DNA of 64,000 nucleotides from Candidatus Aldehydirespiratoraceae bacterium (lineage in GTDB: Bacteria > Actinomycetota > Acidimicrobiia > Acidimicrobiales > Aldehydirespiratoraceae), in assembly GCA_965261185.1 (NCBI GenBank), contig CBDHCN010000002.1, forward strand, positions 2,346,506 through 2,410,505. Reading direction: 5' to 3'. The notes below the pieces were generated by a model, which was not told the DNA's origin, did no database searches, and worked only from the letters and a program-made list of their open reading frames with translations. Of the stretch, positions 23,437 through 52,128 are shown one piece after another. The stretch's first letter is position 1. Every line of letters starts with the position of its first letter. A program made the translations under genes and the position numbers.

Positions 23437-23437
23437 C

Positions 23438-25547: not shown

Positions 25548-25798
25548 GTGTTCAATCGCTAACCCTCAGGCAAACCCTGTGACTCCGCCCATAGAACGAC
25601 ACTCGAATGACTGCGCGACGATAATACCCGCCGCCTCTGGCAAACACGTGAGTACCCCAATCCTGCTGATGTCGGGTCCATTAGTCGGCGGTGTCTTGGC
25701 CGATTTTTTGGGTAGAGACCAGTGTGGGGGGATCCAGGCCAAGAAGAATCGGGACTCCGGCCATGTCCGCTTGGAAGGTGGGACACGGCATTGAGCCG

Positions 25799-26092: not shown

Positions 26093-26167
26093 TTCCCTCT
26101 CCGGATCATGCTCGTTCATATCTCGTTCATTCTATCCGTCAGTCCAGTGGGCCTCTAGGCTGAAAGT

Positions 26168-26843: not shown

Positions 26844-27665
26844 ATGAACGAATTCAAATACGTCGACTACGAAGTGGCCGACGCAGTGGCGACCATCACT
26901 TTGGCCCGTCCCGAAAAGGCCAATGCTCAAAACGAGCGAATGCTTGATGAGGTCGACCATCGTTTCCGCACTGCTGAATACGACGACGAAGTCAAAGTCA
27001 TCGTTTTACGCGGTGAAGGCAAGCATTTCTCCGCCGGTCATGATCTGGGAGGTTCGCGCGATCCTGAAGGGGCGGGACTCGAAGAAGAAGACGGCAGTTG
27101 GCAGTTACACAAGATCTATCGCTGGGAGGCCCGCAAGTATTTGGGCTACTCGTGGCATTGGCGCAACATCCCTAAACCCACCATCGGTGCCATCCAAGGA
27201 AAAGCCATCGCGGGCGCTTTCAACCTTATTTTCCCGCTTGATTTGCTGATAGTCGCCGACGATGTCGAGTTTTCAGATCCAGTGGTGTTGATGGCTATCG
27301 GCGGAGTCGAGTACCACGGCCATACCTGGGAGTTCGGCGCTCGGCGAGCCAAAGACATCCTTTTCACTCAGCGGACTATGGGTGCTGCGGAAGCACATCA
27401 GATTGGTCTGGCTCGTGAGGTAGTGCCGCGCGATCAGCTTTGGGAGCGCACGCACGAGCTAGCGGCTCAAATAGCCACGAACAACGCCTTCGGATTGGCC
27501 CAAGCGAAACGGGCTGTGAATCAGACGCTTGACACGCAGGGCTACTACGCGGCGCTTCAATCGGTGTTCGACGTGCACAGCACGGGACACGGCAATGCCA
27601 TCAGCGTCGGCGGCTATCCGATTCTGATGCGGCTCGACGAGATGAAGAAGAACATCAACCGCTAG
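26844..27665 (+). CDS. Enoyl-CoA hydratase/isomerase (crotonase) family protein
   Basis: 273-aa ORF containing VATITLARPEKANAQN, FSAGHDLG and IGAIQGKAIAGA. Confidence 0.9.
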   Translation: MNEFKYVDYEVADAVATITLARPEKANAQNERMLDEVDHRFRTAEYDDEVKVIVLRGEGKHFSAGHDLGGSRDPEGAGLEEEDGSWQLHKIYRWEARKYLGYSWHWRNIPKPTIGAIQGKAIAGAFNLIFPLDLLIVADDVEFSDPVVLMAIGGVEYHGHTWEFGARRAKDILFTQRTMGAAEAHQIGLAREVVPRDQLWERTHELAAQIATNNAFGLAQAKRAVNQTLDTQGYYAALQSVFDVHSTGHGNAISVGGYPILMRLDEMKKNINR

Positions 27666-27820
27666 CAGAGTTGCAATCCGGCTTCTACCGAGGGGATCTA
27701 CTGCTGGGGTTCCGGTTGGGGAGGTTCGGGGGCGCGTAAGAGTATTGTCTCGATGCCGAAGTCACTAGCGGCGAACATTGCCGCCAAACATGAAGTGAGT
27801 CCGTTGGCAACATCATCGGC
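27531..27820. repeat. Left copy of the 290-bp direct repeat (3' end of ech + 32-bp spacer + 3' end of the SDR gene)
   Basis: Base-by-base comparison with 51839-52128 (offset 24308) found only two mismatches, at 27684/51992 and 27809/52117. Confidence 0.95.
27698..27820 (-). pseudogene. Duplicated 3' fragment (last about 40 codons + stop) of the SDR gene at 52006..52785
   Basis: It encodes ...ADDVANGLTSCLAAMFAASDFGIETILLRAPEPPQPEPQQ*, identical to the C-terminus of the intact SDR. No upstream coding continuation. Confidence 0.9.
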
Positions 27821-27841
27821 GTTGATCCGCTCGGCTGTAGC

Positions 27842-28546
27842 TCAGTTCTGATCGCCCAAGTAGGCGGCCTCAAGGAGCGAGCGATCCTTAGCGAATTCGA
27901 GCGCTGACCCTCGCATGGCGACCCTCCCCCGCACGAGAATGATGGCCTCGTCGGCGAAGTCCAGGGCGAGGCCGACGTGCTGCTCGACGAGCACAACGGC
28001 GGCCGGGGTGTCCTCGGCGATCTTTCGAACCACCGGCAGGAGCCTCTGCACCACGATTGGCGCCAGGCCCATGCTCATCTCGTCGATGAGCAGCACGCGA
28101 GGTCTCTGCACAAGGCCCCGCGCGACGGCCAGCATCTGCTGCTCGCCACCCGAGAGACTGCCTGCGAGGACGGTCCACCGGCGTTCCAGATCTGGGAACA
28201 GCTCCAACATGGCCTCCGGGTTCACTCCGCTCCTTCGGGCCGCGACCGCAAGGTTCTCTTGCACAGTCAGGCTCTTGAACAAGGCCCGGTCATCGGCCAC
28301 CAGCACGATCCCCGCAGACGATGCCTGCGCGGGGCGGCCTGAGGGAACCGGTTCGTCCCCGACTCGGACCTCGCCCTCGAGCGCGGGGAGGAATCCGGCC
28401 AGCGTGTTCATCAAAGTCGTCTTTCCGGCTCCGTTGGGGCCGAGCAGCGCCACGACTGATCCGGGCGAAACGTCGAGGTTCATGGGCTCGACCACTTGCA
28501 CACGGCCGTAGCCGGCAGCGAGTTCTCGGCAGCGAAGCCCTGTCAT
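27842..28546 (-). CDS. Branched-chain-amino-acid-type ABC transporter ATP-binding protein (LivF-like)
   Basis: 234-aa ORF with Walker A GPNGAGKTT, the signature LSGGEQQML and Walker B LLIDE. Confidence 0.9.
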   Translation of the reverse strand: MTGLRCRELAAGYGRVQVVEPMNLDVSPGSVVALLGPNGAGKTTLMNTLAGFLPALEGEVRVGDEPVPSGRPAQASSAGIVLVADDRALFKSLTVQENLAVAARRSGVNPEAMLELFPDLERRWTVLAGSLSGGEQQMLAVARGLVQRPRVLLIDEMSMGLAPIVVQRLLPVVRKIAEDTPAAVVLVEQHVGLALDFADEAIILVRGRVAMRGSALEFAKDRSLLEAAYLGDQN

Positions 28547-31293
28547 GTCTCGCCCTGGTTCGCTGCTTGAGCCTCGTGAGGCTCGCCGAGATAGGCACTC
28601 GCCACAGCGGGGTCGCGGCGGATCTCTTCAGGCGTGCCCGACGCGATCTGATTGCCGAAGTCGAGCACTTGAATCTGGTCGCACAGACCGAGAACGAGCT
28701 GCATGTCGTGGTCGATGAGCAGCACCCCGACTCCCGTATTCGCGATCTCGCGGATGCGATCGCCCAGCCACGCGCTCTCGTTGGAGTCGAGGCCGCCGGC
28801 GGGTTCGTCGAGCAGGAGAATCTCCGGGTCGCCGACCATCGCCCGAGCGATGGAGACCAGCTGTCGCTGACCCTGCGAGAGCTCGCCAGCCTGCTCGTGT
28901 TGTACGTCTTGCAACCCGAGCTGGTCGAGAACCATTCGAGTGGTCGGGGGGTCGAGCCCTCGACTGCGGGCACTAGCCTCGCCGACCACGACGTTTTCTT
29001 CTACGGATAGATCGTCGTACAGTTCTATCGCCTGGAACGTTCGGCCCAGGCCCTCTCGCATCCTGCGATGTGGAGGCAAGCCGCTGAGCTTGCGCTCCCC
29101 CAACGCAACGGATCCCTCACTATCGGTGAATCCGGTGACGGCGTCGACAAGTGTGGTCTTCCCAGCTCCATTCGGCCCGATGAGCCCGACGATCGTTCCC
29201 GGATCCACCGTGAACGACACGTCGCGAACTGCAACAACCCCGCCGTAGCGGACCGTTACCTCGTGGATCTCCAGCGGCCGCGCCGAGCGAGATCGTGGGG
29301 TCTCGTCGTGACTAGTCGGTACGGAGATGAGCGCGGTTCCTGCGGATAACGGTCTCTCGCCACGCTGCCGACCGGGGGCGCGTCGACGCTCGAGTATCAG
29401 TCCTACGAACCCCTCGGGATAGCGGATGATTGCTACCACGAGCAGCGCTCCCACGATGGTCTCGAAGTAGTCGGCTGACCCGAACCGCGATTCGAGGATC
29501 TCTGGAAAGAGACCACCGATCGCTCCTATTCCTGTCAGGAGGCCACCGGTGACCGACGTGACTCCGGCGATGTACGTGGTGGCCAGCAGGGTCAACCCGA
29601 GGAGCACCGTGAACGAGGCGAAGGTCACGCTACCGAGTCGGTAGCCGAGCATCGCTCCACCCAGCCCAGCAATGAAGCTGGCGATCGCGAACGCGAGGAT
29701 CTTGACGCGAACAACGCTGACGCCTGCAGCGGCTGCGGAGCGTTCGTTCGCTCGCACCGCCAACATCTCAGACCCGAGCCGGCTCGTGCGCAGCGCTGAC
29801 ACCCCCCACGCGACGAACGCAACCACGGTGAGTACCATCAGCCCGAACTCGACGCGAGGAAACTCGAGGGCGCTCCCGGCACTCAGGTCGAGACCGAACA
29901 GGCTTGGGTCCTCGATCTCGACGCCGGACGAACCCACGAAGTCGCTGTTGCGAAACCACATCGTCTCGATGGCGACTGCAAGGGCCAACGTGACTACGGC
30001 GAGCGATAGACCACGAACGCGCAACGCCGGCAATCCAACCAGTACGCCAATGGCAGCCGCGCCGAGCGCGGCGAGCACCGGCGCAAGAGGGAACGGGACG
30101 TTCCAGTTCGTCGTGATCGGTCCAAGAAGAAATCCGGCACATCCCGCCAAGGTGAGCTGGGCTAGAGAAATCTGTCCCGCGTAGCCCGTAATTACTACAT
30201 ACGAAAGCGCCAGGATCGAGAAGATGAATGTCATCACCACCGCGGTCCGCCAAGAACCCTCGAGGAGCACCACAGAAGCAATCGCGGCTATCGCTCCGAC
30301 GACGGTCAAGGGTGTGACTCGCCGCTGCGGGCGTGGCGCGCTCCCGAGGTTTCGCTGGACGACTGCACCGCGTGCGGGCAGCGGCGCGGCGCGCACCACG
30401 AGCACCAACATGATGAGGAGCAGCGGGATCAGTTCTGGCACACCTGACGACGGAAGCCAGTCGTTCGTCGCGACGAGGTATTGCGTCCACGACTGGAACA
30501 TGCCGATCGCGAGCCCGGCAACGACTGCGGGCAACATGAACTGGAATCGCCCCAGGATCGCGGCCGCGAGCGCGGGGATGATGAAGAGAGTGTATGCCAC
30601 TGGGACAAGGGGAACGATCGGGGCGATGAGGACCCCTGCGCCGCCGGCCACGGCGGCGCTTAGCATCCAGTTGAGCGCCGCCAGACGGTCCGGCGACAGA
30701 CCAGACAAGTAGGCGCCCCGCTCGGTCTCTGCTGCCGCCCGTGTTGAGAGGCCAAACGGGGTGAAACGAAAGAGCGTCCAGAGCAGGCCAGCGACCACCA
30801 GCACCGCGATGGCAACCCAGACACGATCCGAGGAGATGCGCACATCGCCGATCATCCAGATATCGGAGGGAAACACGTCATCAACAGCGACCGGCCGTGT
30901 TCCGAGCCGGACGGCTATCAGTCCTGTGAGGACGACGAGCACCCCGATAGATGCCACGGCTTTCGCCATCGCCGGCGCTCGGCGGAGCGGTCGGAATACC
31001 ACCAAATACAGCAGTAGGCCGAGCAGCGAGGACAACGCCAACGAGGCGACAATCGCAAGCCCTGTAGGGAAGGACCACCCGAGGTCCATCTTCGCCGGTA
31101 GCCCCGGAACGAGGATCAACAATTCGCCCTTGCGAAGCAGTGCGAACGTGTAGGCGCCGTAGAGAGCGATGGCGCTTGTCGCAAAATTGAGCACGCCGGA
31201 GCTGCGGTATGTCACGACCAAGGCCAAGGCCAACGAGGCGAAGACTGCCCCGTTGGCCAGACCGAGAATCAGAAAGATGACGTGGACGCTCAT
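28543..31293 (-). CDS. Fused LivH-like permease / LivM-like permease / LivG-like ATPase (single 916-aa ORF)
   Basis: The N-terminal about 290 aa is LivH-like (LGLANGAVFASLALALVVTYR). The middle about 330 aa is LivM-like (LALSYVVITGYAGQISLAQL). The C-terminal about 250 aa is an ABC ATPase (GPNGAGKTT, LSQGQRQLV, LLLDEP). All three sit in one frame without a stop. Confidence 0.85.
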   Translation of the reverse strand: MSVHVIFLILGLANGAVFASLALALVVTYRSSGVLNFATSAIALYGAYTFALLRKGELLILVPGLPAKMDLGWSFPTGLAIVASLALSSLLGLLLYLVVFRPLRRAPAMAKAVASIGVLVVLTGLIAVRLGTRPVAVDDVFPSDIWMIGDVRISSDRVWVAIAVLVVAGLLWTLFRFTPFGLSTRAAAETERGAYLSGLSPDRLAALNWMLSAAVAGGAGVLIAPIVPLVPVAYTLFIIPALAAAILGRFQFMLPAVVAGLAIGMFQSWTQYLVATNDWLPSSGVPELIPLLLIMLVLVVRAAPLPARGAVVQRNLGSAPRPQRRVTPLTVVGAIAAIASVVLLEGSWRTAVVMTFIFSILALSYVVITGYAGQISLAQLTLAGCAGFLLGPITTNWNVPFPLAPVLAALGAAAIGVLVGLPALRVRGLSLAVVTLALAVAIETMWFRNSDFVGSSGVEIEDPSLFGLDLSAGSALEFPRVEFGLMVLTVVAFVAWGVSALRTSRLGSEMLAVRANERSAAAAGVSVVRVKILAFAIASFIAGLGGAMLGYRLGSVTFASFTVLLGLTLLATTYIAGVTSVTGGLLTGIGAIGGLFPEILESRFGSADYFETIVGALLVVAIIRYPEGFVGLILERRRAPGRQRGERPLSAGTALISVPTSHDETPRSRSARPLEIHEVTVRYGGVVAVRDVSFTVDPGTIVGLIGPNGAGKTTLVDAVTGFTDSEGSVALGERKLSGLPPHRRMREGLGRTFQAIELYDDLSVEENVVVGEASARSRGLDPPTTRMVLDQLGLQDVQHEQAGELSQGQRQLVSIARAMVGDPEILLLDEPAGGLDSNESAWLGDRIREIANTGVGVLLIDHDMQLVLGLCDQIQVLDFGNQIASGTPEEIRRDPAVASAYLGEPHEAQAANQGET

Positions 31294-31334
31294 GTCAGCG
31301 AGCCTCTAGCAATGACGCACCTCGGCCGGCATCG

Positions 31335-32684
31335 TCAGCCGCCAAGCGTTATTACCTCGGTCAGATCAACCGCTTCGTAGCCAGTCGAGTTTCCGTCAGC
31401 GTCGAGGGTCGTGATCGCCGCGCTGCTCGAGCAGATCGCTGGAGCGATCGCAACGATCATCCGGTTGCATTGGAAGGTCGAATCGCCAGCGCCGAGTGGC
31501 AGTGGGGCCGGATCCATCGCCACAAGTGCAGCCACGACGGACTCAGCAGACATCTCACCGTCTGGGTGCGCAGCCACGCCCCTAGCAAATGAGAGGACGG
31601 CTGCGTAGCCGCTCTGCGCGATGCTGTCAGTTACCGCATCTGGAGCAAACTCCGCCATCACGTTGGCGAAGAGAGCAACCTCGGGGTCCGACGGGTCGTC
31701 TGAGGATGGCCCCATGAGGAGGATGCCCTCCATGTCGACCGCAGCGATCGATGCCTCCCCTACGCATGGACCGATCACGATCGTGTCGCCCTCAAATCCA
31801 AGCGTCTGGATGGCCTGTATGGCGCTGGTGCAAAAAGCTTCATCGCCGATAATCCCGAACTGCTCGACTCCATTGCTGATCGCAGCCTGCACCTGAGGTG
31901 ACATCTCTGGTGTGCCCGGAGCGATCGGGACAACTTCCACCTCGACACCAACGTTTCCGTAGAAGAGCGGCGCAGCGCCGTTGATGGGATCCACCGCGGC
32001 CGGGACGTCAATCACGATGACTCCAGCCTTCGAGACACCATTTTCAACCGCGATAGCAGCCGGCCCGACCAACGTGGCCAGACCATTCGTGATCACGAAT
32101 GACAACGGAGCAGCGAACACGTCAGCAGAGATACCGCCGGTCTGAATGAACGGGATGCCAACCTCGTTCAGCCCACTCGAAAGTGTGTCGCCCTGGCCGG
32201 ACACGCCGTTCAGAACCACAACGACGCCTTCCGATACGAGCTCAGCGACACAGTCCTGCGCGCCAGCGGGAGTCTGCCCGGTGTCACAGGTGACAAGCTC
32301 AATCGAACGGCCGCCCGCGCCTGCGAGGTATTCATTCGCGTACGCCGCCGCAGCTTCGGCGGCGGGCGTCTCTGACGAGTTGTCGATCGCATCCGAGCGT
32401 CCATCGCTGACGAAGCCGACCTTCACGGAGTCACCGCTTGCCGGGTTTGGCTCCCCTAGCGGGCCGATGGTTGGGCCCTCCTCCACGGGGTCATCGCCGT
32501 CAACGGGGTCGTCGCCGTCAACGGGGTCGTCGCCGTCAACGGGGTCGTCGCCGTCAACGGGGTCGTCGGCGACGTCGCTGGGGGCGACATCCTCGTTGTC
32601 AGCCGACGAATCGTCGTCGCCGCACGCGGCGGCCACAAGGCTGAGCACTGCCAACGCAACAATGAGTCTCTTCCAGATGGACAA
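31335..32684 (-). CDS. ABC transporter substrate-binding lipoprotein (LivK/Peripla_BP_6-like)
   Basis: Part of ORF 31335..32801. The TTG at 32684 is preceded by GAGGAGGGGA. It has a lipobox LSLVAAAC-G, an acidic DDPVDG-repeat linker and then a periplasmic-binding fold. Confidence 0.8.
   Translation of the reverse strand: MSIWKRLIVALAVLSLVAAACGDDDSSADNEDVAPSDVADDPVDGDDPVDGDDPVDGDDPVDGDDPVEEGPTIGPLGEPNPASGDSVKVGFVSDGRSDAIDNSSETPAAEAAAAYANEYLAGAGGRSIELVTCDTGQTPAGAQDCVAELVSEGVVVVLNGVSGQGDTLSSGLNEVGIPFIQTGGISADVFAAPLSFVITNGLATLVGPAAIAVENGVSKAGVIVIDVPAAVDPINGAAPLFYGNVGVEVEVVPIAPGTPEMSPQVQAAISNGVEQFGIIGDEAFCTSAIQAIQTLGFEGDTIVIGPCVGEASIAAVDMEGILLMGPSSDDPSDPEVALFANVMAEFAPDAVTDSIAQSGYAAVLSFARGVAAHPDGEMSAESVVAALVAMDPAPLPLGAGDSTFQCNRMIVAIAPAICSSSAAITTLDADGNSTGYEAVDLTEVITLGG
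32487..32576. repeat. 18-bp in-frame tandem repeat GGGGTC(A/G)TCGCCGTCAAC, 4 copies plus 1 degenerate copy
   Basis: Read directly. It encodes (DDPVDG)n just after the lipoprotein cysteine of the SBP. Confidence 0.95.
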
Positions 32685-33009
32685 GAGCGGTCCCCTCCTC
32701 AGGTCCGCGGCTCCGGTCGGCCGCGCTTCCCGAACCCAGCGATGAGCTCCAGAATTCAAATAGGTTAGTATATATTCTCTGAGAGGGTCAATCGCCTCCA
32801 CGCGACCGCCTCGTCAGGCACGCGGCCACCACTCCCTCGGTGCTCTGACGACTACCCGTGCAGGACTACTGCCTGACGCGCAGACGAGCTCCGCTCCGCT
32901 CACGGTGCCGGCCTGCACCGTCGCATCGATCAGGCAGACGCACCGCACGCGGTCAGTCTGGGAAGCCAGCGGTAGCCTCGGAAGAGATCGCTCGCCGCGT
33001 AGGAACGCC

Positions 33010-33741
33010 ATGACTGACCTAGCCATCGCCGAAGACAACTCGAAGAAGACCCACGAGCTCGTTGCCGACGAACTCCGACGGCGCATCGTGAGCGGCGACC
33101 TCCAGGTCGGCGAACGGCTACCTCCAGAAGATGAACTCAATCAGTTGTTCGGCATCGCCCGCACAACTCTGCGCGAGGCGCTTCGCGTTCTGGAATCACA
33201 GGGGTTGATCGAGATCCGTCGTGGCCGGGGCGGCGGTCCGGTCGTCACCAAGCCGGATCTCGAACCGGCAGCAACAGCCCTCGCGGTGGCCCTCCAGCTC
33301 GAGAACACGACGGTCGGCGACCTCTACGAGGTCCGGCAGATGATTGAGCCCCACGCGGCCGGGACTTTGGCCGAACGACACACTACGGCCGACATTCGCA
33401 CGCTCACCCTGGCCATCGACCATGCAGAAGCGGCGGCCGAGGCCAACGACTCACTCGCGTTCGGACAGGCGGCCGCCCGAGTGCACGAGACGCTTCTTGA
33501 GATCAATGCCAACCCCGCCCTTTCCATCATCTCACAGCTGATTCACGGCCTCGTGTGGCGCTACTACGTCGAGAAGGCGGCCGGCACCCCACAACGCCTG
33601 ATGCGGCGAGCGATTCGCTCCTACCGAAACCTCGTCGACCTGATCGAAGACGGCGATGTCGCGGGGGCTGTCGAGCATTGGCGAGCCCAAATGGCATACA
33701 CCCAAGGGGCCTCTGGCAAAGAGCGACTCGACCTCTTCTAG
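33010..33741 (+). CDS. GntR-family (FadR subfamily, FCD domain) transcriptional regulator
   Basis: Part of ORF 32905..33741, from the ATG at 33010. The wHTH reads LVADELRRRIVSGDLQVGERLPPEDELNQLFGIARTTLREALRVLESQGLIEIRRGRGGG, followed by a helical FCD-like domain. Confidence 0.85.
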   Translation: MTDLAIAEDNSKKTHELVADELRRRIVSGDLQVGERLPPEDELNQLFGIARTTLREALRVLESQGLIEIRRGRGGGPVVTKPDLEPAATALAVALQLENTTVGDLYEVRQMIEPHAAGTLAERHTTADIRTLTLAIDHAEAAAEANDSLAFGQAAARVHETLLEINANPALSIISQLIHGLVWRYYVEKAAGTPQRLMRRAIRSYRNLVDLIEDGDVAGAVEHWRAQMAYTQGASGKERLDLF

Positions 33742-34934: not shown

Positions 34935-35032
34935 CTCCAGACCGCGGAGGAACTCGAAACCAGCAAATAGGATAGTATTTATTCAATCCGGCGCCTAGGT
35001 CGTTGCGGAGCGCGAGCGGGAGCAACGGCCTT

Positions 35033-36268: not shown

Positions 36269-36305
36269 TGGTCGTCTCCTCCTTCGGTCGGTGCTGGACG
36301 CTTCG

Positions 36306-37088: not shown

Positions 37089-37131
37089 GTTTCACTCCTC
37101 GGTTCGTTCGATCGTGAGAGTTCTTGCGACT

Positions 37132-38701: not shown

Positions 38702-38774
38702 GGAGTCATTGAGTATACGGTATTGCTATGAGACCTGCAGGCGACCCGGGCGCCCTTCAGCCTGAAATCGCCCA

Positions 38775-40136: not shown

Positions 40137-40140
40137 AGCG

Positions 40141-41664: not shown

Positions 41665-41698
41665 GGCCGGTGTCCGTTCCTGTTCGTGGTCTGCTCCA

Positions 41699-42511: not shown

Positions 42512-42652
42512 GGTTGGATTCCTCTCATCGGCGGCATCCCGTAATTAGGATACTGTATTCTGCGGATCATATCTGAGGCTAGACGCCCTATGTCGGCGGC
42601 CCGGTCCGAAATGAGGGTACTCTTCACGCGTCGTCGAGTCTTGGAGGCACAG

Positions 42653-43879: not shown

Positions 43880-43903
43880 CCGCAGGCTCCCTAGCCGGCG
43901 CTG

Positions 43904-44920: not shown

Positions 44921-45040
44921 CCCAGCTCCCTCCGTGCGCCAGCGCCGGTGCCACATGGCACTCGATTGGTTCTGTCTCTCGATCCGTGTCGATCGACGTC
45001 ACGGGCGGGGACGGTCGTCGAGCCGTCAAAGAGTTATGTC

Positions 45041-46606
45041 TCACTCCTGACGAGCGTCCCGCTCGGCGGCCTCGTCGCGCAGCAGCCGCTTGAACAGCTT
45101 GCCCGCCTCAGTTCGGGGAAGAGTGTCCCGGAACTCCACTGATCTTGGACACTTGAAGCTCGCAAGGTGCTCGCGGGCGTAAGCGATCAGTTCGTCCGCA
45201 AGTGTGGTCGATGGCTCGACGTCCTCGACAAGTTCGACCACGGCCTTGACGGACTCTCCCCATTCGTCGTCGGGCATCCCGATCACGGCAACGTCCGCCA
45301 CGGCAGGAAATCCTGTCAACACTGCTTCGATCTCAGCGGGGTAGATGTTGACCCCGCCGCTGATGATCATGTCTTTCGCTCGATCAAGGAGGAACAGGTA
45401 GCCGTCCTCATCGAGGAAGCCGATATCGCCAATCGTGAAGGCCCGTCCTCGGTGAGCGGATTCCGTCAATCCAGGCTCGCCGCTGTACTCGAATGTCGGC
45501 CCGGAGTCGGGCTGCATGTAGACGTGTCCAGGCTCGCCGTTCGGGAGATGGTTGCCGTCATCGTCGAGAATGTCGACGCTCATTCCGCGCACCGCCCGGC
45601 CTACGGTGCCCGGCTTCTCGACCCAGCGGTGAGGCTTCGCGATCGTCGCCGCGCCCTCCATCCCTCCGTAGGTCTCCCAGATCACAGGCCCCCACCACTC
45701 GATCATCTGCCATTTCACGTCGACGGGGCAGGGCGCGGCTGAATGAACGACGACTTCGAGGCTTGAGACATCGGACGCGGCCTTGATGAGATCCGGCAGT
45801 CGAAGGAGTCGAACGAACTGAGTGGGAACCATGTATGCAGTCGTCACGCCGTGGCGTTGTATGCGTTGGAGCGCGGACTCGGCATCGAACCTCCCCATGA
45901 TGACAAGGGGTTGGCCGACGTGAAGGGCGGAGGTGTAGAAGCCCTGGCATCCGCCATGGTGCATGCCTGCCGACACGAGGTGTGGGCCTCCGAACGGTCG
46001 AAACTGGAACGCGCGGGCGAAAATCTTCTGAGCGTCGGCCGCGTCAGACGGATCTACCTCTGGTAGCGGCCGCCAGATTCCATTCGGTTTGCCGGTGGTG
46101 CCAGACGAGTAGGACACGGGACCACCGAGGGTTCGGTCCGCGGGACTGGTGATCGGATGCCCGTTGACCAGATCAGATTGAGCAACGAAGCCGGCGATCT
46201 CCCCTCCCACCGACACTTTGAGCCGAACAGACTCCGAACGCGAGACGACCTCGGCCCTCTCAGCTGTTTGTGTGTGGGCGACAATCACCGACGCGCCAGA
46301 GTGATCCACGATCTCAGTTATCTCCGAAGCCGACAACGCCGGATTCAACGCGAGCGAACGCATTCCGCTCTCGCTCGCCGCGAGTTGCCACAGAACGATG
46401 TCCACGTCGTTCGGAAGGGCAAGAGCGACAATGTCCCGCGGGCCAAGACTGTGGGATCGCAGGGCGTGAACGAGTTGGTGCGCCGAGCCGGCTAGTTCAC
46501 GGTAGTTGAGAACCCGTCCGCTGGGACTATCAATGATTGCTGGCAGATCAGGTTTGTCTTCTGCGATCGACCAGACGCCGAGTCTCTGATCCCAGGGGTG
46601 GCGCAC
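45041..46606 (-). CDS. Acyl-CoA synthetase (AMP-dependent ligase, FadD-like)
   Basis: 521-aa ORF with the AMP-binding motif YSSGTTGKPNG, the C-terminal GKLFKRLLR and a GTG start at 46606. Confidence 0.9.
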   Translation of the reverse strand: MRHPWDQRLGVWSIAEDKPDLPAIIDSPSGRVLNYRELAGSAHQLVHALRSHSLGPRDIVALALPNDVDIVLWQLAASESGMRSLALNPALSASEITEIVDHSGASVIVAHTQTAERAEVVSRSESVRLKVSVGGEIAGFVAQSDLVNGHPITSPADRTLGGPVSYSSGTTGKPNGIWRPLPEVDPSDAADAQKIFARAFQFRPFGGPHLVSAGMHHGGCQGFYTSALHVGQPLVIMGRFDAESALQRIQRHGVTTAYMVPTQFVRLLRLPDLIKAASDVSSLEVVVHSAAPCPVDVKWQMIEWWGPVIWETYGGMEGAATIAKPHRWVEKPGTVGRAVRGMSVDILDDDGNHLPNGEPGHVYMQPDSGPTFEYSGEPGLTESAHRGRAFTIGDIGFLDEDGYLFLLDRAKDMIISGGVNIYPAEIEAVLTGFPAVADVAVIGMPDDEWGESVKAVVELVEDVEPSTTLADELIAYAREHLASFKCPRSVEFRDTLPRTEAGKLFKRLLRDEAAERDARQE

Positions 46607-46638
46607 GCAAATAGAGTATCCCCATTGGCGCGTTGGTG

Positions 46639-48045
46639 CTACTGGAGCGTTCCTGACACAGCGGCGAGGTGCCTCCGCATCCGGTGGTGCGCGAGGTCGC
46701 GCTCACCAGCGATTAGCGCGTCGCAGATCTTCGAATGCGTTTCGAGAACCTCAGCGCGAATCCCACTGCACATCTGGACCGTCCGCTGCGCGTCTTGCAG
46801 TCGGGTAAGCCGAAGGAGGATCCGCGCGACCAATTCGAGGACGCGGTTTCCGCCCAGCGAAGCGATAACTGCGTGGACATCATGGACCGCTTCGGCCACC
46901 TCGTCGTCACTCGCCTCAGCCTCGTCAACAAGGGCACGACTGAGCCGCTCCTCCACTAGTGCCGAAGGCTGCTTGATCACCAGATCGATGAGGGTGAGCT
47001 CGACAGTGGTTCGTACCTCGGCGAGGTCGTCGGTTTGAACGCCGTGCCAGTTGAGGTACACCGCGGCAACGTCGCAGACAGCGGATGCATCGGCCGGCAC
47101 CACGAACAAGCCGCCGCCAGGGCCGCGGCGCATCGCTGCGATTCGGTGATGCTCGAGAAGCCGTACCGCCTCGCGAAGTACGGCGCGGCTCACGCCATAC
47201 TCCTCGATCAGATCGCCCTCTGATCCCAGGAGAACTCCTGGTGAGAGACCTTCGTTGATCACCCGACTGAAGATCTCCTGCGCAATACTCTCCGCCCGCT
47301 TGCCACCCTGCCGGCCGCGGAGTGCCGTTACAGCGTTGAGTTCCTGTCGAGTACCTCGTCGGGCACGGATGAAGTCGGCTTCAGCCTGCAGATGGGCCGT
47401 CATTCGCTGCCGCGCCAGCGCGTCATCGCCGGCCATTACTGCGTCGGCGATCTTGCGATGGGCGTGTCTGACCGCGCCGATTGTGGGCTTTGAAATCTCG
47501 TTGACGTCGCTGAAGTAGAAGATGGCAAGGCGGCTGAGCATCTCTACGAACAGCTCAAGAGCCGGGTTGCCGGTTACCCGAGCCAGCAGACTGTGGAGCG
47601 CCCGATGGTCTCGCACGCGACCCGCATCCTCATCGTCGACAAGCTCCTGCAGCTCCACCAGGGCGGCCTCATCGACCCGAGTTGGCGCGACTGCCGTCAC
47701 GAGTTCTTCGATGATGCGTCGAGCTTCGAACAGTTCATCGAGCTGCGCTTCTGTGCGCAACAGATAGATGACGGCCGCGTCGATCACCGCGTCGACGACA
47801 GGCTCAGCGACCACCAGCCCGCCGCCAGGGCCGCGGCGCATGCGAGCGACGTGCTGATGCTCGACGATGCGAACGCCTTCCCGAAAGACCGCCCTGCTCA
47901 CGCCGTACTGCTTGATCAGCTCATCCTCGGAGCCGATCACCTCACCAACGGGCCAGTCGCGCTGCGCGATCTCGTCGATGATCTGCGTCGCAAGCCGCGA
48001 CGCCAACTTGTCGGTGCTTCCGGCCAGCCCTAAGTCGCGAGTCAT
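46639..48045 (-). CDS. Tandem double GntR/FadR-type regulator (two wHTH+FCD modules in one chain)
   Basis: 468-aa ORF. Module 1 is ...EDELIKQYGVSRAVFREGVRIVEHQHVARMRRGPGGGLVV.... Module 2 is ...EGDLIEEYGVSRAVLREAVRLLEHHRIAAMRRGPGGGLFV.... Each is followed by a helical ligand-domain-like region. Confidence 0.8.
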   Translation of the reverse strand: MTRDLGLAGSTDKLASRLATQIIDEIAQRDWPVGEVIGSEDELIKQYGVSRAVFREGVRIVEHQHVARMRRGPGGGLVVAEPVVDAVIDAAVIYLLRTEAQLDELFEARRIIEELVTAVAPTRVDEAALVELQELVDDEDAGRVRDHRALHSLLARVTGNPALELFVEMLSRLAIFYFSDVNEISKPTIGAVRHAHRKIADAVMAGDDALARQRMTAHLQAEADFIRARRGTRQELNAVTALRGRQGGKRAESIAQEIFSRVINEGLSPGVLLGSEGDLIEEYGVSRAVLREAVRLLEHHRIAAMRRGPGGGLFVVPADASAVCDVAAVYLNWHGVQTDDLAEVRTTVELTLIDLVIKQPSALVEERLSRALVDEAEASDDEVAEAVHDVHAVIASLGGNRVLELVARILLRLTRLQDAQRTVQMCSGIRAEVLETHSKICDALIAGERDLAHHRMRRHLAAVSGTLQ

Positions 48046-48240
48046 TGACTATCCGTCGCTCGCAGCTCGCTCGTACCCAGGTTGCGCATGTCCTCGCACA
48101 CTCCCAGGCTACACATGTCAAAGATTCGCGACGCCGACCAGAACCGCCATAGACAGCCACATAGGCGACCGCTTGTCGGCGTCGCTCTCGCCGGCGAGGC
48201 GCCAATGTCCCTTCGGTGTCGGCCTCATTCCCGGACCTCG

Positions 48241-49368
48241 TCACTGCCGGGGGAAGTTGAAGACTCGTCGAGCGTTGCCCTCAGCGATCTTGCTTGCCTC
48301 ATCATCGGGCACGTCGCGCAGCGCGACCTCAAGGTCTTCTCGTGAAGTCGGGAAGTGGCTGTCGCTATGGGGGTAGTCACTCTCGAACATGATGTTGTCG
48401 AGGCCAATGAGATGGCGTTCCTCGATGCCTGCCTGGTCGGAGATGAAGCAACCAAAGATGTGCTCCCGAAAGAGGTCCGATGGACGCACGTCAGGGTTCA
48501 CGCCCGTGTACCAGCGATGCCGCTCCCAGGTGTCGGCTGCGCGTTCGAGGACATAGGGGATCCATCCGATGCCACCTTCGGAGAGCGCGACGCGCAAGCG
48601 GGGGAACTCGTGAAACGTCCGAGAGAGGATCATGTCGATTGCGGTGAACTGCGAGTTCATGCCGAATAGCGCGATCGCGACCGCGAAGTTCGCATCTGGC
48701 GCCACCTCTGGTGCGCCACCGGTGCCGAAATGCAAGCAAAGCGGCATGTCGGCATCCTGCGCCGCCGCGAGGAACGGGTCCCAGTGATCGGTGTGAAACG
48801 AGGGAAGCCCTAAGCGATGCGGTGCCTCACTGAAGGTGATGGACTTCGCGCCCTTCTTGGCGGTTCGTTGTACCTCAGCGACCGATGCCTCGACATCCCA
48901 GAACGGAACCATCACCATCGGGATGAAACGACCTGGAGCGGCCGCGCACCACTCGTCAAGAATGAAATCGTTCCACGCGACCACGCACCGGCCCGCTAGC
49001 TCCTTGTCCTTGGCCCCAAAGAAGGTCGAGCCGGCGAATCCCGGGAACGACGGAAAACACATCTGCGCGTGCACACCATCGAGGTCCATGTCTGCCACGC
49101 GAGCCTTGACGTCGTAGCAGCCGGATCGCATGTCATCGAAGCTGACGGGGTCCAGCCCGAAGTCCTTGGGATCTTTGCCGGCCACCGCGTTCAGCCCGAT
49201 CGTCGGCATGGTTTGACCCTCGAATCGCCATGCCTGCCCCCCTCCGTCGACCTCAACCACGTGGGGCCCCGCTTCTTGATCCTTCTTCGGTAGCCGGTCG
49301 GTCCAGACGGCCGCGTGCTCGATCACATGGTCATCGACCGAGATCACTTGTGTGTCGTCAGGCAACAT
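48241..49368 (-). CDS. Amidohydrolase-2 family (ACMSD/LigW-like metal-dependent hydrolase/decarboxylase)
   Basis: 375-aa ORF with VISVDDHVIEH, FPSFPGF and a C-terminal ESDYPHSD, typical of PF04909-type proteins. Confidence 0.8.
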   Translation of the reverse strand: MLPDDTQVISVDDHVIEHAAVWTDRLPKKDQEAGPHVVEVDGGGQAWRFEGQTMPTIGLNAVAGKDPKDFGLDPVSFDDMRSGCYDVKARVADMDLDGVHAQMCFPSFPGFAGSTFFGAKDKELAGRCVVAWNDFILDEWCAAAPGRFIPMVMVPFWDVEASVAEVQRTAKKGAKSITFSEAPHRLGLPSFHTDHWDPFLAAAQDADMPLCLHFGTGGAPEVAPDANFAVAIALFGMNSQFTAIDMILSRTFHEFPRLRVALSEGGIGWIPYVLERAADTWERHRWYTGVNPDVRPSDLFREHIFGCFISDQAGIEERHLIGLDNIMFESDYPHSDSHFPTSREDLEVALRDVPDDEASKIAEGNARRVFNFPRQ

Positions 49369-49423
49369 CTGGGAGTCCTCTCTCGACGGGACGCTAAAGA
49401 GTATCCCGTTTTATGTTGAGCCG

Positions 49424-49543
49424 TCACAGCAGTCGACGAAGCTCCTGCTTGCGCACCTTCCCCGCCGGGGTACGCGGAAGCGCATCAACAATCACCAATC
49501 GTGTCGGCAGCTTGTGTCGTGCCAGCCCCGCCTGTTCACCGTG
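49424..49543 (-). pseudogene. 3' remnant of an acyl-CoA synthetase gene
   Basis: Minus-strand translation gives HGEQAGLARHKLPTRLVIVDALPRTPAGKVRKQELRRLL*, the canonical C-terminus of AMP-dependent ligases. There is no upstream continuation of the family sequence. Confidence 0.6.
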
Positions 49544-49600
49544 CCGTCCAGAATAAAGTATCCTCTATCAACCGTCGAAAGTCCGCAGGAGTTTCATCGC

Positions 49601-50443
49601 ATGGCCAGTTCGGAACCACACACGGAACCCGTTCTCTTCGTCGACATCGTCGAGAAGGTCGCGACCATCACATTGAACCGGCCCAAGCTCCGCAACGCGC
49701 TCAATGGTGAGCTCATCGCAGCGCTCGACGCTGCGGTCAAGGCTGTCGCCGACGACGATGCCGTCAAGGTGGTGGTGATCACGGGCGCTGCCGCCGATGG
49801 CCAGCTAGGCGGCTTCTGCTCCGGCGGAGACAGGTCGTCGAGTCGTGGATCGGAGGGCATGGAGCTTGGCGTCCCGCGCGATGCCCTCAAGGGTGAGCTG
49901 GCCCGACACGACACTCACGCCGCCATGCTGCTGCACCAGATGCCGAAGCCGACCATCGCGATGGTCGGCGGTCCAGCCGTCGGAGCAGGGTGCAGCCTGG
50001 CCGCCGCCTGCGACCTGCGATTCGCATCGCCCGACGCCGTGTTCGCTGCCAACTTCACACCGATCGGCCTATCCGGCGACTACGGCGGCACGTTTTGGTG
50101 GACTCGCATCGCTGGGACCGGGGTTACGCGCCAGCTCTACCTCCTCAACGAGAAGATCGACGCGGAGCGGGCCCTTCAGTTGGGGATGGTCCACGCGGTC
50201 GTCCCTTCGACGGAACTCAGCAAGTACACCGCCGAGGTAGCGGCTCGTCTAGCCAAAACGCCTCGCAAGGTCCTAGCGCTCGTGAAAGACAACCTCAATC
50301 AGGCCGAGGACGAGATCGAGCGGCGTCGATTCTTGTTCGCCAACGAGGCTGACAATCAGGCCAGTGCGGCGAAGGCGACGATGGCCCGCGTGAAGAATGT
50401 CAAAAAGGCAGCTTCACCTACCGAGCAGAACCCGACGAGCTAA
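49601..50443 (+). CDS. Enoyl-CoA hydratase/isomerase family protein
   Basis: Part of ORF 49352..50443. The ATG at 49601 is preceded by GCAGGAG. It contains VATITLNRPKLRNAL and VGGPAVGAGCSLA. Confidence 0.85.
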   Translation: MASSEPHTEPVLFVDIVEKVATITLNRPKLRNALNGELIAALDAAVKAVADDDAVKVVVITGAAADGQLGGFCSGGDRSSSRGSEGMELGVPRDALKGELARHDTHAAMLLHQMPKPTIAMVGGPAVGAGCSLAAACDLRFASPDAVFAANFTPIGLSGDYGGTFWWTRIAGTGVTRQLYLLNEKIDAERALQLGMVHAVVPSTELSKYTAEVAARLAKTPRKVLALVKDNLNQAEDEIERRRFLFANEADNQASAAKATMARVKNVKKAASPTEQNPTS

Positions 50444-50472
50444 CGGGCCATCGGCGGGCGGATTGACCCGGC

Positions 50473-51759
50473 CTACGCCGATTGCTCTGCCAAGCGGCGC
50501 TCCGCTGCAAGGTCGCGGTGGCGGTCCATTCGAGCCGATGCGTCGTCGGCCAGGTCACCTGGAGCCTCAGGCAACACAACGGCACCATGCTCTCGGCTCG
50601 GTAGCGCCACCGTGGCCTTGCCCGGGCAGGTCACAACATCTCGTTGATTCACGCCACGCATCTCGACTTCAACGAGACATCTTCCATCCTCGACCCGCTT
50701 ACCGACCACCTCGCCAGTGATGATGTGAGTGTCGCCAACGTAGTTGAACTTGCGAATCTCGCTGCTCTGTCGCACCAGCCATCCCTCGTCGCCCATCCAG
50801 TCCGTCACGAAGTGCGACAGGTGGCAGTCACGCATCACTCCGTAGTCGTATGCCATCGGGTTCCCAATTGCCTGCGCCCACGCCGAGTCCCAGTGGACGC
50901 GCTGAGCCACATCGGGGACGCCGTACTCGTTGGCCACATAGAACGGCTTGATCCGCTGTCGGTTCTCGTACGCGATCCGGTTCGAACATGGGGCATAGGG
51001 AACGAAGCCGTATCCTCCCGCATGGAACACGATCATGTCGGTGGTTGTGAGCGGACCTTTCGCCATCGGCGTGAGGGTCTCGCCGACCGTGACGTCTTCC
51101 CAACACCGCGCCTCTCGCCCTCGAGCGCTCTCCTGGGCATAAATCGCGTCGATCTCCGCAAGGTCGGCCTCGGTGTAGGTAGCGGGCTCGATCTTGGCGT
51201 ACTTGCCCTTCTTGCGGGCCGTCTTTCGCTCCGTGTGAATCGCCAGCGTGCGAGAGATGGCTACGAGCTCACCGTTCTGGTTCATCTTGAGACTGGCGTA
51301 GGTGATCAGCACTGACCGCTGGGCGAATTCTGACTCCTTCTCCTCAACTGACTCGATCCCCCCGTAGCTGAACAGCTGATCGCCTGCGACCAGCGGCCGA
51401 AACCACTCCCAAGAACTTCCCGATACGAATACATGAATCCCCCTAAACGAGGGACGCTTGACTCGAACCTCCGGCTTGTCCTCGTACAGCGGCTTGTTGA
51501 GACCAATCGGAATCATCGGCGGCGCGATCTGCGCCCCCCATCTCGTGGACTCCCCGTATTCCACAGAGCCGTACAGAGGATTGTCGTCGCCGTAGCTGCG
51601 AGCAAAGTTCCGCATCGCATCATGCGTGACCTCGGTGAGATGTTCTTGAGCGCGCGACGCCCGGTAGATGCCGACCGCCCTCCTCGCCTGCTCGATATCC
51701 TCCTCCCTGAACGTGTGATCGGTGGCCTTCTGGAACTCAGCGGATGTCTCTGCAGCCAT
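50473..51759 (-). CDS. Fused double hot-dog (N-terminal dehydratase-like + MaoC-like) acyl dehydratase
   Basis: 428-aa ORF. The N-half resembles the FAS1-like/MaoC-N hot-dog (NFARSYGDDNPLY). The C-half is MaoC-like (MIVFHAGGYG..., DTHIITGEVVGKRVEDGRCLVEVEMRGVNQ). Confidence 0.7.
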   Translation of the reverse strand: MAAETSAEFQKATDHTFREEDIEQARRAVGIYRASRAQEHLTEVTHDAMRNFARSYGDDNPLYGSVEYGESTRWGAQIAPPMIPIGLNKPLYEDKPEVRVKRPSFRGIHVFVSGSSWEWFRPLVAGDQLFSYGGIESVEEKESEFAQRSVLITYASLKMNQNGELVAISRTLAIHTERKTARKKGKYAKIEPATYTEADLAEIDAIYAQESARGREARCWEDVTVGETLTPMAKGPLTTTDMIVFHAGGYGFVPYAPCSNRIAYENRQRIKPFYVANEYGVPDVAQRVHWDSAWAQAIGNPMAYDYGVMRDCHLSHFVTDWMGDEGWLVRQSSEIRKFNYVGDTHIITGEVVGKRVEDGRCLVEVEMRGVNQRDVVTCPGKATVALPSREHGAVVLPEAPGDLADDASARMDRHRDLAAERRLAEQSA

Positions 51760-51838
51760 GGTTGCCTCTCAGGCGTCTCAGCCTAAAGAGTATACTCTTA
51801 ATGTCGGAGGCATCACGAAAACTGCTCCCCGGGACATC

Positions 51839-51973
51839 GACACGCAGGGCTACTACGCGGCGCTTCAATCGGTGTTCGACGTGCACAGCACGGGACACGG
51901 CAATGCCATCAGCGTCGGCGGCTATCCGATTCTGATGCGGCTCGACGAGATGAAGAAGAACATCAACCGCTAG
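51839..51973 (+). pseudogene. Duplicated 3' fragment (last 44 codons + stop) of the ech gene at 26844..27665
   Basis: It encodes DTQGYYAALQSVFDVHSTGHGNAISVGGYPILMRLDEMKKNINR*, identical to the C-terminus of the intact ech. The upstream sequence is unrelated. Confidence 0.9.
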
Positions 51974-52128
51974 CAGAGTTGCAATCCGGCTCCTACCGAG
52001 GGGATCTACTGCTGGGGTTCCGGTTGGGGAGGTTCGGGGGCGCGTAAGAGTATTGTCTCGATGCCGAAGTCACTAGCGGCGAACATTGCCGCCAAACATG
52101 AAGTGAGTCCGTTGGCGACATCATCGGC
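51839..52128. repeat. Right copy of the 290-bp direct repeat
   Basis: See the left copy (27531-27820); 288/290 identical by direct comparison. Confidence 0.95.

Follow-up and report, generated by a model that had tools for sequence, protein, structure and literature searches.

A 24-kb catabolic gene cluster found in one species-level population of sponge-associated Acidimicrobiia (Ca. Aldehydirespiratoraceae) is bounded by long direct repeats composed of the 3' ends of the two convergent genes that flank it. The arrangement as a whole probably results from a single insertion of foreign DNA with a long target duplication, after which the island has been subject to homologous recombination bounded by the repeats. 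The evidence comes from the structure of the repeats, from empty sites in related genomes, from the contents of the island and from an abrupt change in strain divergence at the repeat edges.

Structure of the repeats and the flanking genes

In the window, by which we mean the whole 64-kb stretch of DNA analyzed here, positions 27531-27820 (the left repeat, R_L) and 51839-52128 (the right repeat, R_R) are direct copies of a 290-nt sequence, R, with 99.3% identity; exactly the two mismatches listed in the initial annotation of this DNA separate them (27684 T versus 51992 C, and 27809 A versus 52117 G). Chance is far from sufficient to account for a match of this length and identity in 64 kb, and R occurs only twice in the window. 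A weaker likeness extends beyond R to 27826/52134 (296 nt, 4 mismatches), and R measures ~292-294 nt when the alleles of other strains are used, because the window has private changes at 27530 and 52129.

The left flank ends with ech, which encodes an enoyl-CoA hydratase of 273 aa (26844..27665, forward strand; Pfam ECH_1, 2.7e-34) that is present as an identical protein on 12 contigs, and the right flank begins with a convergent SDR gene (52006..52785, reverse strand, 259 aa; Pfam adh_short, 7e-28) that directly adjoins ech in all of the empty-site genomes. R_L (27531..27820) consists of the live ech tail (27531-27665, forward strand, 44 codons and the stop), a spacer of 32 nt (27666-27697) and a dead 3' fragment of SDR on the reverse strand (27698..27820, the stop and 40 codons) without the 5' part of the gene. 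R_R (51839..52128) consists of a dead ech tail (51839-51973), the spacer (51974-52005) and the live SDR tail (52006-52128, reverse strand). These coordinates agree with the content first assigned to R (44 ech codons, a 32-bp spacer and about 40 SDR codons), and with the statement that ech is completed by the left copy, in which the SDR tail is dead, and SDR by the right copy, in which the ech tail is dead.

The ech-side edge of R is sharp, with matches at 7/30 positions, which is chance level. Just past the SDR-side edge there is patchy microhomology (27821..27834), where the start of the island, GTTGATCCGCTCGG, agrees with GTTCATCAGGCCGG, the consensus of live SDR, at 10/14 positions, with a leading GTT at the repeat edge. 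The left junction is common to strains L001, L003, L004, L006 and L011, and the end of the island (..CTCCCCGGGAC) is common to L012 and L094, the latter having an R_R identical to that of the window. At the right junction of L012 the first ~46 nt of R_R have been swapped for ~108 nt of unrelated filler, which has no match among the 94 loci compared or in the window and gives no ech-like peptide on translation; we treat it as a secondary replacement in dead sequence. A scan of JGI metagenomes with a conserved 24-mer from R returned no match.

Empty sites and the derived state of the island

Comparison with related genomes, as proposed in the initial annotation, revealed the uninterrupted ech-SDR junction with a single R in seven sister species (GTDB representatives L014-L017 and L019-L021), in all of which the gene order is isochorismatase>ech>|<SDR<APH and the ech gene is 93-100% identical, as well as in six conspecific contigs (L002, L005 and L007-L010); in both sets R is collinear with both flanks. 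The single-R sites uphold the earlier view that the island was inserted into a once tight convergent ech/SDR junction and, at the level of sequence comparison, they strongly support its status as a derived insertion.

The flank genes have orthologues of 90-98% identity in the sister species, and the MaoC-like dehydratase of the island, the one island protein for which relatives outside the species were sought, has a closest relative there that is 78-79% identical. The GC content of the island, at 63.0%, is higher than that of its flanks (59.3% and 61.2%), a comparison that had also been proposed at the outset. Together, the MaoC-like protein and the modest GC contrast support a foreign origin for the island. 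L013, whose MaoC-like protein is 78% identical, was considered as a donor and ruled out, its cluster being related but non-syntenic, and no other sequence was identified as the donor. It is scarcely credible that the island and its repeats are instead ancestral, with every empty site a deletion produced by R x R recombination. Such recombination would yield precisely the empty site that is observed, and some of the conspecific empties, e.g., L005 (0.44-0.51% from L003/L004), could be revertants, but all seven sister species are empty, the MaoC-like protein has the distant best non-self match just given, the duplication requires a pre-existing intact ech/SDR junction, and the diversity of the island (at most 1.5%) is several-fold below that of the flanks. 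For the species as a whole, an ancestral island is largely refuted.

The same junctions are present in 8 further contigs, which come from 5 samples, and contigs of 3.75 Mb, 4.12 Mb and 257 kb run through the island; real junctions and a single origin of the insertion are supported by these assembled sequences. The initial annotation had raised the prospect of mis-assembly, in which two loci, or an empty site and a separate circle, would have been joined through the 290-bp repeat. We give this next to no credence. The assembly is of the metagenome type and derives from a strain-diverse population, and filled L003 (42x) and empty L007 (15x) coexist in sample ERZ25068966, but these two are different strains, the copies of the repeat differ by SNPs, the repeat is far shorter than long reads, and both junctions are seen in the 8 other contigs, including those of megabase scale.

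Contents of the island

The inserted island (27821..51838) has the length originally given, 24,018 bp, and contains 19 ORFs where 21 intact genes had been counted, two of the 19 being fusions (a permease-permease-ATPase of 916 aa and a tandem GntR/FCD protein of 468 aa). What had been called a fadD remnant survives only as a 27-aa match (E=0.06) at 49445-49525.

Nearest to R_L, on the reverse strand, is a Liv/Urt-type ABC importer (27842..32801; Pfam ABC_tran, BPD_transp_2 and Peripla_BP_6) that comprises an ATPase (27842-28546), the 916-aa fused permease-permease-ATPase (28543-31293) and a substrate-binding protein (31335-32801) with a linker formed by an 18-nt tandem repeat (family D4); matches of the importer to LivF, LivG and UrtE of NCBIfam are below cutoff. 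A GntR/FCD regulator (32905..33741, forward strand) is followed on the reverse strand by an acyl-CoA dehydrogenase (33738-34934), a CYP107-like P450 (35033-36367, probable start 36268), an enoyl-CoA hydratase (36306-37088), an SCP-x/lipid-transfer-type thiolase (37132-38301) and a DUF35/ChsH2-type OB-fold protein (38294-38701). Next come an APH-family kinase on the forward strand (38775-40136) and, on the reverse strand, an aldehyde dehydrogenase (40141-41664) and an internal SDR (41699-42511) that is largely deleted in strain L012. A family III CoA-transferase (42590-43879, forward strand) precedes four reverse-strand genes, namely those for a DUF7065/7064 Rv3169-family protein (43904-44956), a FadD4-like acyl-CoA ligase (45041-46606), the tandem-fused GntR/FCD regulator (46639-48045) and an Amidohydro_2 enzyme (48241-49368). 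The island closes with an enoyl-CoA hydratase (49601-50443, forward strand; 280 aa in gene calls from elsewhere) and the MaoC-like protein, a double-hotdog dehydratase of the MaoC/FAS1 type (50473-51759, reverse strand), for which a PDB sequence search gave no match. The cargo thus combines an ABC importer and two GntR regulators with a predicted CoA-dependent oxidation pathway for a lipophilic acid or alcohol; none of the island ORFs reaches an equivalog cutoff in NCBIfam that would name a substrate.

Lack of mobility genes

Domain searches and the position of the nearest tRNA sustain the earlier statement that no integrase, transposase or tRNA attachment site is involved. No integrase, transposase or other mobile-element gene is found among the 19 ORFs (Pfam, NCBIfam, PHROGs), no recombinase gene lies in the island or within ~10 kb of it in any strain seen, and there is no tRNA at the junctions, the nearest being 1.8 kb beyond R_R. 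The island is also devoid of replication, partition and transfer genes, and its ORFs include no methyltransferase or nuclease domain that would mark restriction-modification (RM) cargo. Terminal repeats are absent as well, end-to-end alignments of the island being no better than those of shuffled controls. Insertion of a transposon or IS is ruled out by the lack of a transposase and of terminal repeats, and by a duplication of 290 bp as compared to the short 2-14 bp expected. The search for the island on plasmids that had been suggested recovered no copy from PLSDB, where megablast with the whole island gave only a 129-bp, 77% match in Rhizobium; the same search against phages gave nothing. 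Exact-protein look-ups returned chromosomal contexts only, with no record for the SDR, the MaoC-like protein, the amidohydrolase or ECH2.

The surroundings of the island constitute a general plasticity zone, with TnpB, TctABC and Fic/ImmA insertions in other strains. In the window, a low-GC Fic/ImmA segment is present at 23.1-26.2 kb; it was considered as a source of mobility functions and ruled out, since it is absent from all other filled strains.

A CIME-like non-autonomous element, with a recombinase encoded elsewhere, a core site within R and R itself a long att region, would be a very unlikely explanation of these observations. Integrative elements that target 3' ends do bring a substitute 3' end with them and leave a dead tail behind, but the island and its ~10-kb surroundings contain no integrase in any of the strains seen, no ICE or prophage occupies the ech/SDR site in any strain, and R restores two gene ends, more than a single core site calls for. 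In addition, alleles of R seem to recombine over its full length, which argues against one core.

Strain divergence and exchange of alleles at the repeat

The near-identity of the repeats had been taken to imply a recent event, a view that the strain comparisons do not support: the insertion is common to at least 4 diverged lineages, and the islands of different strains differ by up to 1.5%. Divergence between strains goes from ~1% in the island to 3-6% in R and the flanks, and the switch falls exactly at the edges of R. Relative to the window, L001, L003, L004 and L006 have identities of 91.9-96.5% across isochorismatase and the 5' part of ech, 96.6-97.6% across R and 98.5-99.9% from the first base of the island onward; the figures for L012 are 98.2-99.1% for the island and 95.9-96.0% for R and SDR. 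Between L001 and L006 the difference is 0.06-0.10% in the island and 2.64% in the flank next to it. In the genealogy of the flank, filled strains do not group apart from empty ones but are interleaved with them; in the left flank, filled L003/L004 differ by 0.44-0.51% from empty L005 and by 3-5% from other filled strains.

The dead SDR tail occurs as four haplotypes among the filled strains, with 5 polymorphic sites in common with live SDR alleles, and L001 and L006 differ at 4/123 of its sites. In the dead ech tail, the 3 sites that differ between L012 and the window all segregate in live ech. These shared alleles show that R exchanges sequence with the live ech and SDR genes. Because alleles found in the dead tails also segregate in the live genes, the identity of the repeats reflects sequence exchange and not age, and identity between repeats of this kind is unusable for dating the insertion. 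The exchange is spread along the whole of R, with crossover points that are not precisely mappable, and its route may be gene conversion, crossovers in R during linear import, or excision and Campbell re-integration. Campbell integration would make the copies of R chimeras of donor and resident alleles; live-gene alleles in dead tails would fit this but are equally expected from gene conversion or flank imports. Both copies of R were read from one lineage, that of the window with the near-clonal L011 and L094, and we infer that R is homogenized within genomes of the other lineages. The divergence step could in principle stem from saturating imports of flanks out of empty-site strains, which would stop at heterology, with no need for transfer of the island.

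Origin and later history of the island

We propose that a foreign 24-kb cluster entered the 32-bp junction of convergent ech and SDR a single time, and that it did so by insertion with long target duplication. In this event ~290 bp of the target would have been copied to both sides, which left the 3' ends of both flanking genes intact and, next to each, a non-functional tail of its neighbour. This would have happened without an island-encoded recombinase and most likely through illegitimate joints, the one on the SDR side having patchy microhomology and the one on the ech side having none. Candidate mechanisms are the fill-in of a long staggered break and a template switch during replication, with a return to a position ~290 bp behind the one that had been left. 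We also considered that R was first duplicated in tandem and the cargo then inserted at the joint so created, but rejected this scenario, which depends on a coincidence of sites that has no explanation.

An origin by Campbell integration, in which a circle with the 24-kb cargo and one 290-bp copy of the junction entered through a single homologous crossover, strikes us as unlikely. An insert between two copies of R with both genes restored is the exact product of a single crossover, no recombinase is needed, R is clearly recombinogenic in the population and, as a later re-integration into empty-site strains, the process fits the divergence step and the mixed alleles of the dead tails. As an account of the origin, however, it adds steps: R is native and the cargo foreign, and the circle would therefore require two earlier illegitimate joints at exactly today's junctions. 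Nor does the island have replication, partition or transfer genes, or a circular or plasmid copy that we could find. Campbell-type integration may thus explain the spread of the island but cannot alone explain the first joining of foreign DNA to native R, a step that a staggered or replicative duplication of the target explains no less parsimoniously.

For the later dynamics of the island, recombination at R has good support: the island has acted as an R-bounded unit driven by host homologous recombination, with recombination tracts that stop exactly at the boundary between R and the island, and it is now present in, or lost from, strain backgrounds that are far more diverged than the island itself. 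Its precise excision via R is plausible; the assembled contigs, which would not reveal such forms, showed no circle, tandem amplification or same-clone excision. More tentatively, and with the odds against it, the island and one R might be a recombinase-free mobile unit, for which R would be a RecA-dependent attachment site derived from the host's convergent junction. Such a unit would loop out between the copies of R, be taken up as DNA and re-enter any ech/SDR junction that is empty by a single crossover that restores both genes, which would explain the divergence step, the near-identical islands of L001 and L006 and the live alleles in the dead tails.

Comparison with known systems

Insertion with long target duplication has been described in bacterial genomes (Nobusato 2000, Gene 259:99; Furuta, Abe & Kobayashi 2010, NAR, PMC2853133) as direct repeats from tens of bp to ~420 bp around a block of genes, which align once to the empty site in a related genome and are associated with no integrase or transposase (PMC2853133). 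A stop or start codon often lies within the repeats, which keep the target gene intact, the inserts differ from the host in GC content, and the long repeats have been proposed to permit later recombination or amplification (PMC2853133). All of the described cases carry RM genes, the survey considered only inserts of <20 kb, and its authors link the process to breaks that the RM system makes in DNA (PMC2853133). The present island resembles these cases in its repeats of >30 bp (290 nt), its single-copy empty sites, its deviating GC content, its lack of a mobility gene and a repeat that is not a tRNA or att site. It differs from them in its 24.0-kb metabolic cargo with no RM gene, in that R restores two convergent gene ends at once, and in the population data that reveal R exchanging alleles with live genes. 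RM cargo and a size of <20 kb are search criteria of the survey rather than part of the architecture of the rearrangement, and we regard the island as a non-RM case of insertion with long target duplication, the closest known category, in which non-RM cargo is new.

Three other kinds of system share some of these features. Campbell insertion-duplication, as seen with suicide plasmids and plasmid integration, reverts by recombination between its repeats. It has the same order of homologous segment, insert and homologous segment with both genes restored, but the island has no vector or replicon functions, and its homologous segment is native and its cargo foreign. The e14 element and phage 21 in icd, like the islands that target tRNA or tmRNA genes, carry a replacement 3' end of the target gene and encode a tyrosine or serine recombinase that acts at a short core. 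The island likewise has a duplicated, non-functional gene tail and functional genes reconstituted by element-borne or duplicated sequence, but it has no recombinase, and no core is evident in R. Flexible genomic islands, the minimal mobile elements (MMEs) of Neisseria and the additive islands of marine bacteria are exchanged by homologous recombination in conserved flanks. In these, as here, strain-variable cargo lies between conserved genes and spreads by host recombination with no dedicated mobility machinery; unlike them, the present island has a long target duplication at its edges, and its tracts stop at the repeat, where theirs reach into the flanks.

Implications

Insertion with long target duplication would accordingly not be confined to RM genes or to small inserts. 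The RM-only cases had suggested that the cargo's own nuclease makes the break; if this, as we think probable, is how an uncultivated sponge symbiont acquired a 24-kb metabolic pathway, then some host-side mechanism must be capable of such insertions. The population data also show the duplicated target turning into a hotspot of homologous exchange, which delimits the mobile unit. Pathway-sized islands could by this simple route spread, or disappear again, with no mobility genes of their own.

Repeat architecture and the two states of the site

The two copies of R, a direct repeat of 290 nt at 27531-27820 and 51839-52128, differ at two positions (27684 T versus 51992 C and 27809 A versus 52117 G) and enclose 24,018 bp; the window holds no second long dispersed repeat pair of this kind. 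As read in the left copy, R consists of the last 44 codons and the stop of ech (27531-27665), a 32-nt spacer (27666-27697), and the stop and last 40 codons of the convergent SDR gene (27698-27820). The left copy completes ech (26844-27665) and terminates in a "dead" SDR tail, i.e., a 3' gene fragment that lacks its 5' part; in the right copy a dead ech tail (51839-51973) precedes the sequence that completes SDR (52006-52785). On re-measurement, the repeat length, the mismatches and the interval, as well as the coordinates of the completed genes and dead tails, agree with those of the initial annotation.

Its relatives mark the host as a sponge-associated member of the Acidimicrobiia, the closest named relative being Ca. 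Aldehydirespiratoraceae, with Ca. Poriferisocius and the Sva0996 group farther off. Conspecific contigs looked up by the exact ech protein fall into two states of the site, filled and empty. Filled contigs (L001, L003, L004 and L006, joined by L011 from a further look-up) carry ech, then the dead SDR tail and then an ABC operon; in the empty contigs (L002, L005 and L007-L010) ech meets SDR via one copy of R, collinear with the window flanks on either side. L012, whose contig spans 3.75 Mb, also has the right junction, as does the 257-kb contig L094, which matches the window at 99.5% identity and carries the right repeat unchanged. With these junctions recurring in contigs of other strains, the structure is not a mis-assembly. 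All eight GTDB species representatives with a 93-100% identical ech lack the island, so it is not an ancient structure common to all relatives either, and the two outcomes that the initial annotation named as refuting its proposal are both contradicted. Seven of the eight keep the order isochorismatase>ech>|<SDR<APH>MBL<Prx; in the eighth, L018, SDR and APH have been lost and ech is directly followed by the MBL gene (L018 9459-9970). The earlier proposal that the island was inserted into a former ech-SDR junction is thus borne out by empty sites in both conspecific strains and sister species, and the comparison strongly supports the empty site as the ancestral state and the island as derived.

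A large-database search for relatives of the island was made with one protein, the MaoC-like dehydratase, whose best relative outside the species is 78-79% identical, as compared to 90-98% for flank-gene orthologues in sister species. The GC comparison proposed in the initial annotation gives 63.0% for the island versus 59.3% and 61.2% for the flanks, with a modestly higher GC3 in the island. This one protein and the modest GC contrast suggest that the island is of foreign origin; searches that included the MaoC-like relatives found no donor.

Cargo of the island

Our recount gives 19 ORFs in the island rather than the 21 intact genes claimed initially, and the reported "fadD remnant" comes down to a borderline match of 27 aa at 49445-49525 (E=0.06). 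Transport is represented by a Liv/Urt-type ABC importer, made up of an ATPase, a fused permease-permease-ATPase of 916 aa and a binding protein, and regulation by two GntR/FCD proteins, of which one is a tandem fusion. The other predicted products are an acyl-CoA dehydrogenase, a CYP107-like P450, two enoyl-CoA hydratases, an SCP-x-type thiolase with its DUF35 partner, an APH-family kinase, an aldehyde dehydrogenase, an internal SDR, a family III CoA-transferase, an Rv3169-family protein, a FadD4-like ligase, an Amidohydro_2 enzyme and a MaoC-type double-hotdog dehydratase. None of the island's proteins reaches an NCBIfam equivalog cutoff, so that no match at this level names a substrate, and the label "catabolic island" is reasonable. 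The substrate-binding protein varies in length among strains (488, 506, 512 or 518 aa), and an 18-nt tandem repeat (32464-32589) lies in its N-terminal linker. The internal SDR (41699-42511) is nearly wholly deleted in L012, where a 65-aa remnant is called (L012 19169-19443), and the gene content of the island is therefore already strain-variable.

Recombinase, transposase, relaxase, replication and restriction-modification (RM) domains are absent from all 19 island proteins, inverted or direct repeats between the island ends do not exceed shuffled controls, and neither of the two tRNA genes of the window (53937-54012 and 59130-59206) touches a junction. On these three counts the earlier statement that no integrase, transposase or tRNA site is involved holds.

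Age of the insertion and exchange between repeats and live alleles

Near-identity of the repeats had been taken to imply a recent event, a reading that the strains do not support: at least four diverged lineages have these junctions in common, their islands differ pairwise by 0.06-1.5%, and the dead tails carry alleles of the live genes. At positions 27737, 27743, 27752, 27766, 27798 and 27809 the dead SDR tail reads TTGTAA in the window and L011, TCGTAG in L006, TCGTGA in L003 and L004, and CCTCAA in L001, and live (intact) SDR alleles segregate at five of these six sites. The dead tail of L006 equals the live allele of L008 and L009, and that of L001 is nearly equal to the live allele of L007. 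Six sites separate the dead ech tails of L012 and the window, three of them also polymorphic in live ech and three private; the polymorphism of dead tails is mostly variation common to the live genes. A single insertion followed by independent decay would give private changes only; the R copies have therefore exchanged sequence with live alleles. The window's dead ech tail matches the live tail of the same genome at all eight population-variable sites, which homogenisation or crossover within R fits better than youth does. Identity between the two copies of R is no clock for the insertion.

Recombination bounded by the repeats

Each strain's identity to the window was profiled across the locus. 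For L001, L003, L004 and L006 it rises from 91.9-94.8% in the isochorismatase gene through 96.1-96.5% in the 5' part of ech and 96.6-97.6% in R to 98.5-99.9% in the island, from its first base; for L012 it is 98.2-99.1% in the island, 95.9% in R and 96.0% in the 5' part of SDR. The islands of L001 and L006 are nearly identical (0.06-0.10% divergence), whereas the adjacent 1.4 kb diverge by 2.64% and the dead SDR tails differ at 4 of 123 sites, which places a breakpoint no more than about 12-30 nt from the boundary between R and the island. By left-flank distances, filled and empty strains interleave, the filled L003 and L004 being 0.44-0.51% from the empty L005 and 3-5% from other filled strains. 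The island thus has a single genealogy, younger than its backgrounds, and is present in, or has been lost from, backgrounds typical of the 4-6% diversity of the species. This pattern is accommodated equally by three processes: the two R copies may undergo gene conversion, linear DNA may be imported in tracts that necessarily end where homology to the empty allele ends, or a circle of island plus R may loop out and re-integrate by the Campbell route.

The founding event

The initial annotation favored Campbell-type integration of a circle, and the observed structure is indeed the formal product of such an event, but signs of a circle or replicon are absent, and we regard it as no more than a possible founding route, and as a plausible one for later spread. 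Purely homologous models need foreign cargo that is already joined to both ends of a native R, which makes two illegitimate joints at the present junctions inescapable; if these formed in the chromosome itself, fewer steps are needed than if a circle was built first and integrated afterwards. Such direct joining could have proceeded by the filling-in of a long staggered break, or by a replicative template switch that re-entered about 290 bp back from the place where it had left. The ech-side edge of R is sharp, and the SDR-side edge has patchy microhomology, with 10 of 14 positions matching between the island (GTTGATCCGCTCGG) and live SDR (GTTCATCAGGCCGG).

In L012 the first ~46 nt of the right repeat (window ~51836-51885) are replaced by about 108 nt of filler (L012 9813-9924), which has no match among the 94 loci compared and through which the dead ech tail is now fused to an ORF of 40 aa. 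Because the window's extra 46 nt are genuine in-register ech sequence, we interpret the L012 arrangement as a secondary alteration of dead sequence.

Variation elsewhere in the neighbourhood

At 23109-26165 the window has a low-GC segment (3,057 bp, 52-55%) in place of a 68-nt ACAD/isochorismatase intergenic region that is present in all other strains, near-clonal L011 included. The products encoded there are a Fic/Doc-like protein (23294-23866), a protein of 265 aa that weakly resembles nucleoside 2-deoxyribosyltransferase (23856-24653) and an M78 peptidase of the ImmA/IrrE type (24834-25547). The segment lacks a long target duplication and has the look of a toxin- or defence-like module of very recent date. 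An IS605-family OrfB/TnpB gene (Cas12f-like TNB domain) lies between SDR and APH in the empty L005 (11633-13516) and the filled L012 (7015-8907) and is missing from the window. In L007 (4610-10923) a two-component system and a TctABC tripartite tricarboxylate transporter are inserted between APH and MBL, adjoining the tRNA-Gly position (window 53937-54012); this and the other variants mark the neighbourhood as a plasticity zone. An 824-aa ORF (55763-58237) consists of about eight repeats of 135 nt (45 aa) that carry a WSDG..MWV motif, together with a 189-nt tandem pair; since homologues in relatives have an SLH domain, it probably encodes a repeat protein of the cell surface. Beside tRNA-Cys (59130-59206), two short direct-repeat pairs (59501-59546/61301-61346 and 60063-60141/61360-61438; 89% identical, 1.3-1.8 kb apart) may be duplicated toxin-antitoxin modules, because relatives have PIN-domain and small-ORF pairs at this site. 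Tandem arrays with units of 18 nt and 15 nt, perfect or nearly so, occur close to the window's start at 181-322 and 573-691, and a related 18-nt array at 53849-53918.

Comparison with known systems

Insertions of this kind have been described for RM systems in Helicobacter, Haemophilus, Neisseria, Burkholderia, Clavibacter and others, with repeats of 30 to about 420 bp that align singly to the empty site and often cover a stop or start codon, which preserves the target gene; the authors suggested a link between the mechanism and DNA breakage caused by RM (PMC2853133; PMC2993543). The window island shares the architecture of these long-target-duplication insertions and does not conform to integrase-driven islands or to transposons. 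Unlike the described cases, it lacks RM genes, measures 24 kb and restores two convergent genes together, and we file it as a non-RM member of the known group. The category itself is recognisable; what is instructive for specialists is the non-RM cargo together with the pattern of recombination bounded by R, and what the island adds is population-level evidence for the role of the long repeats after insertion.
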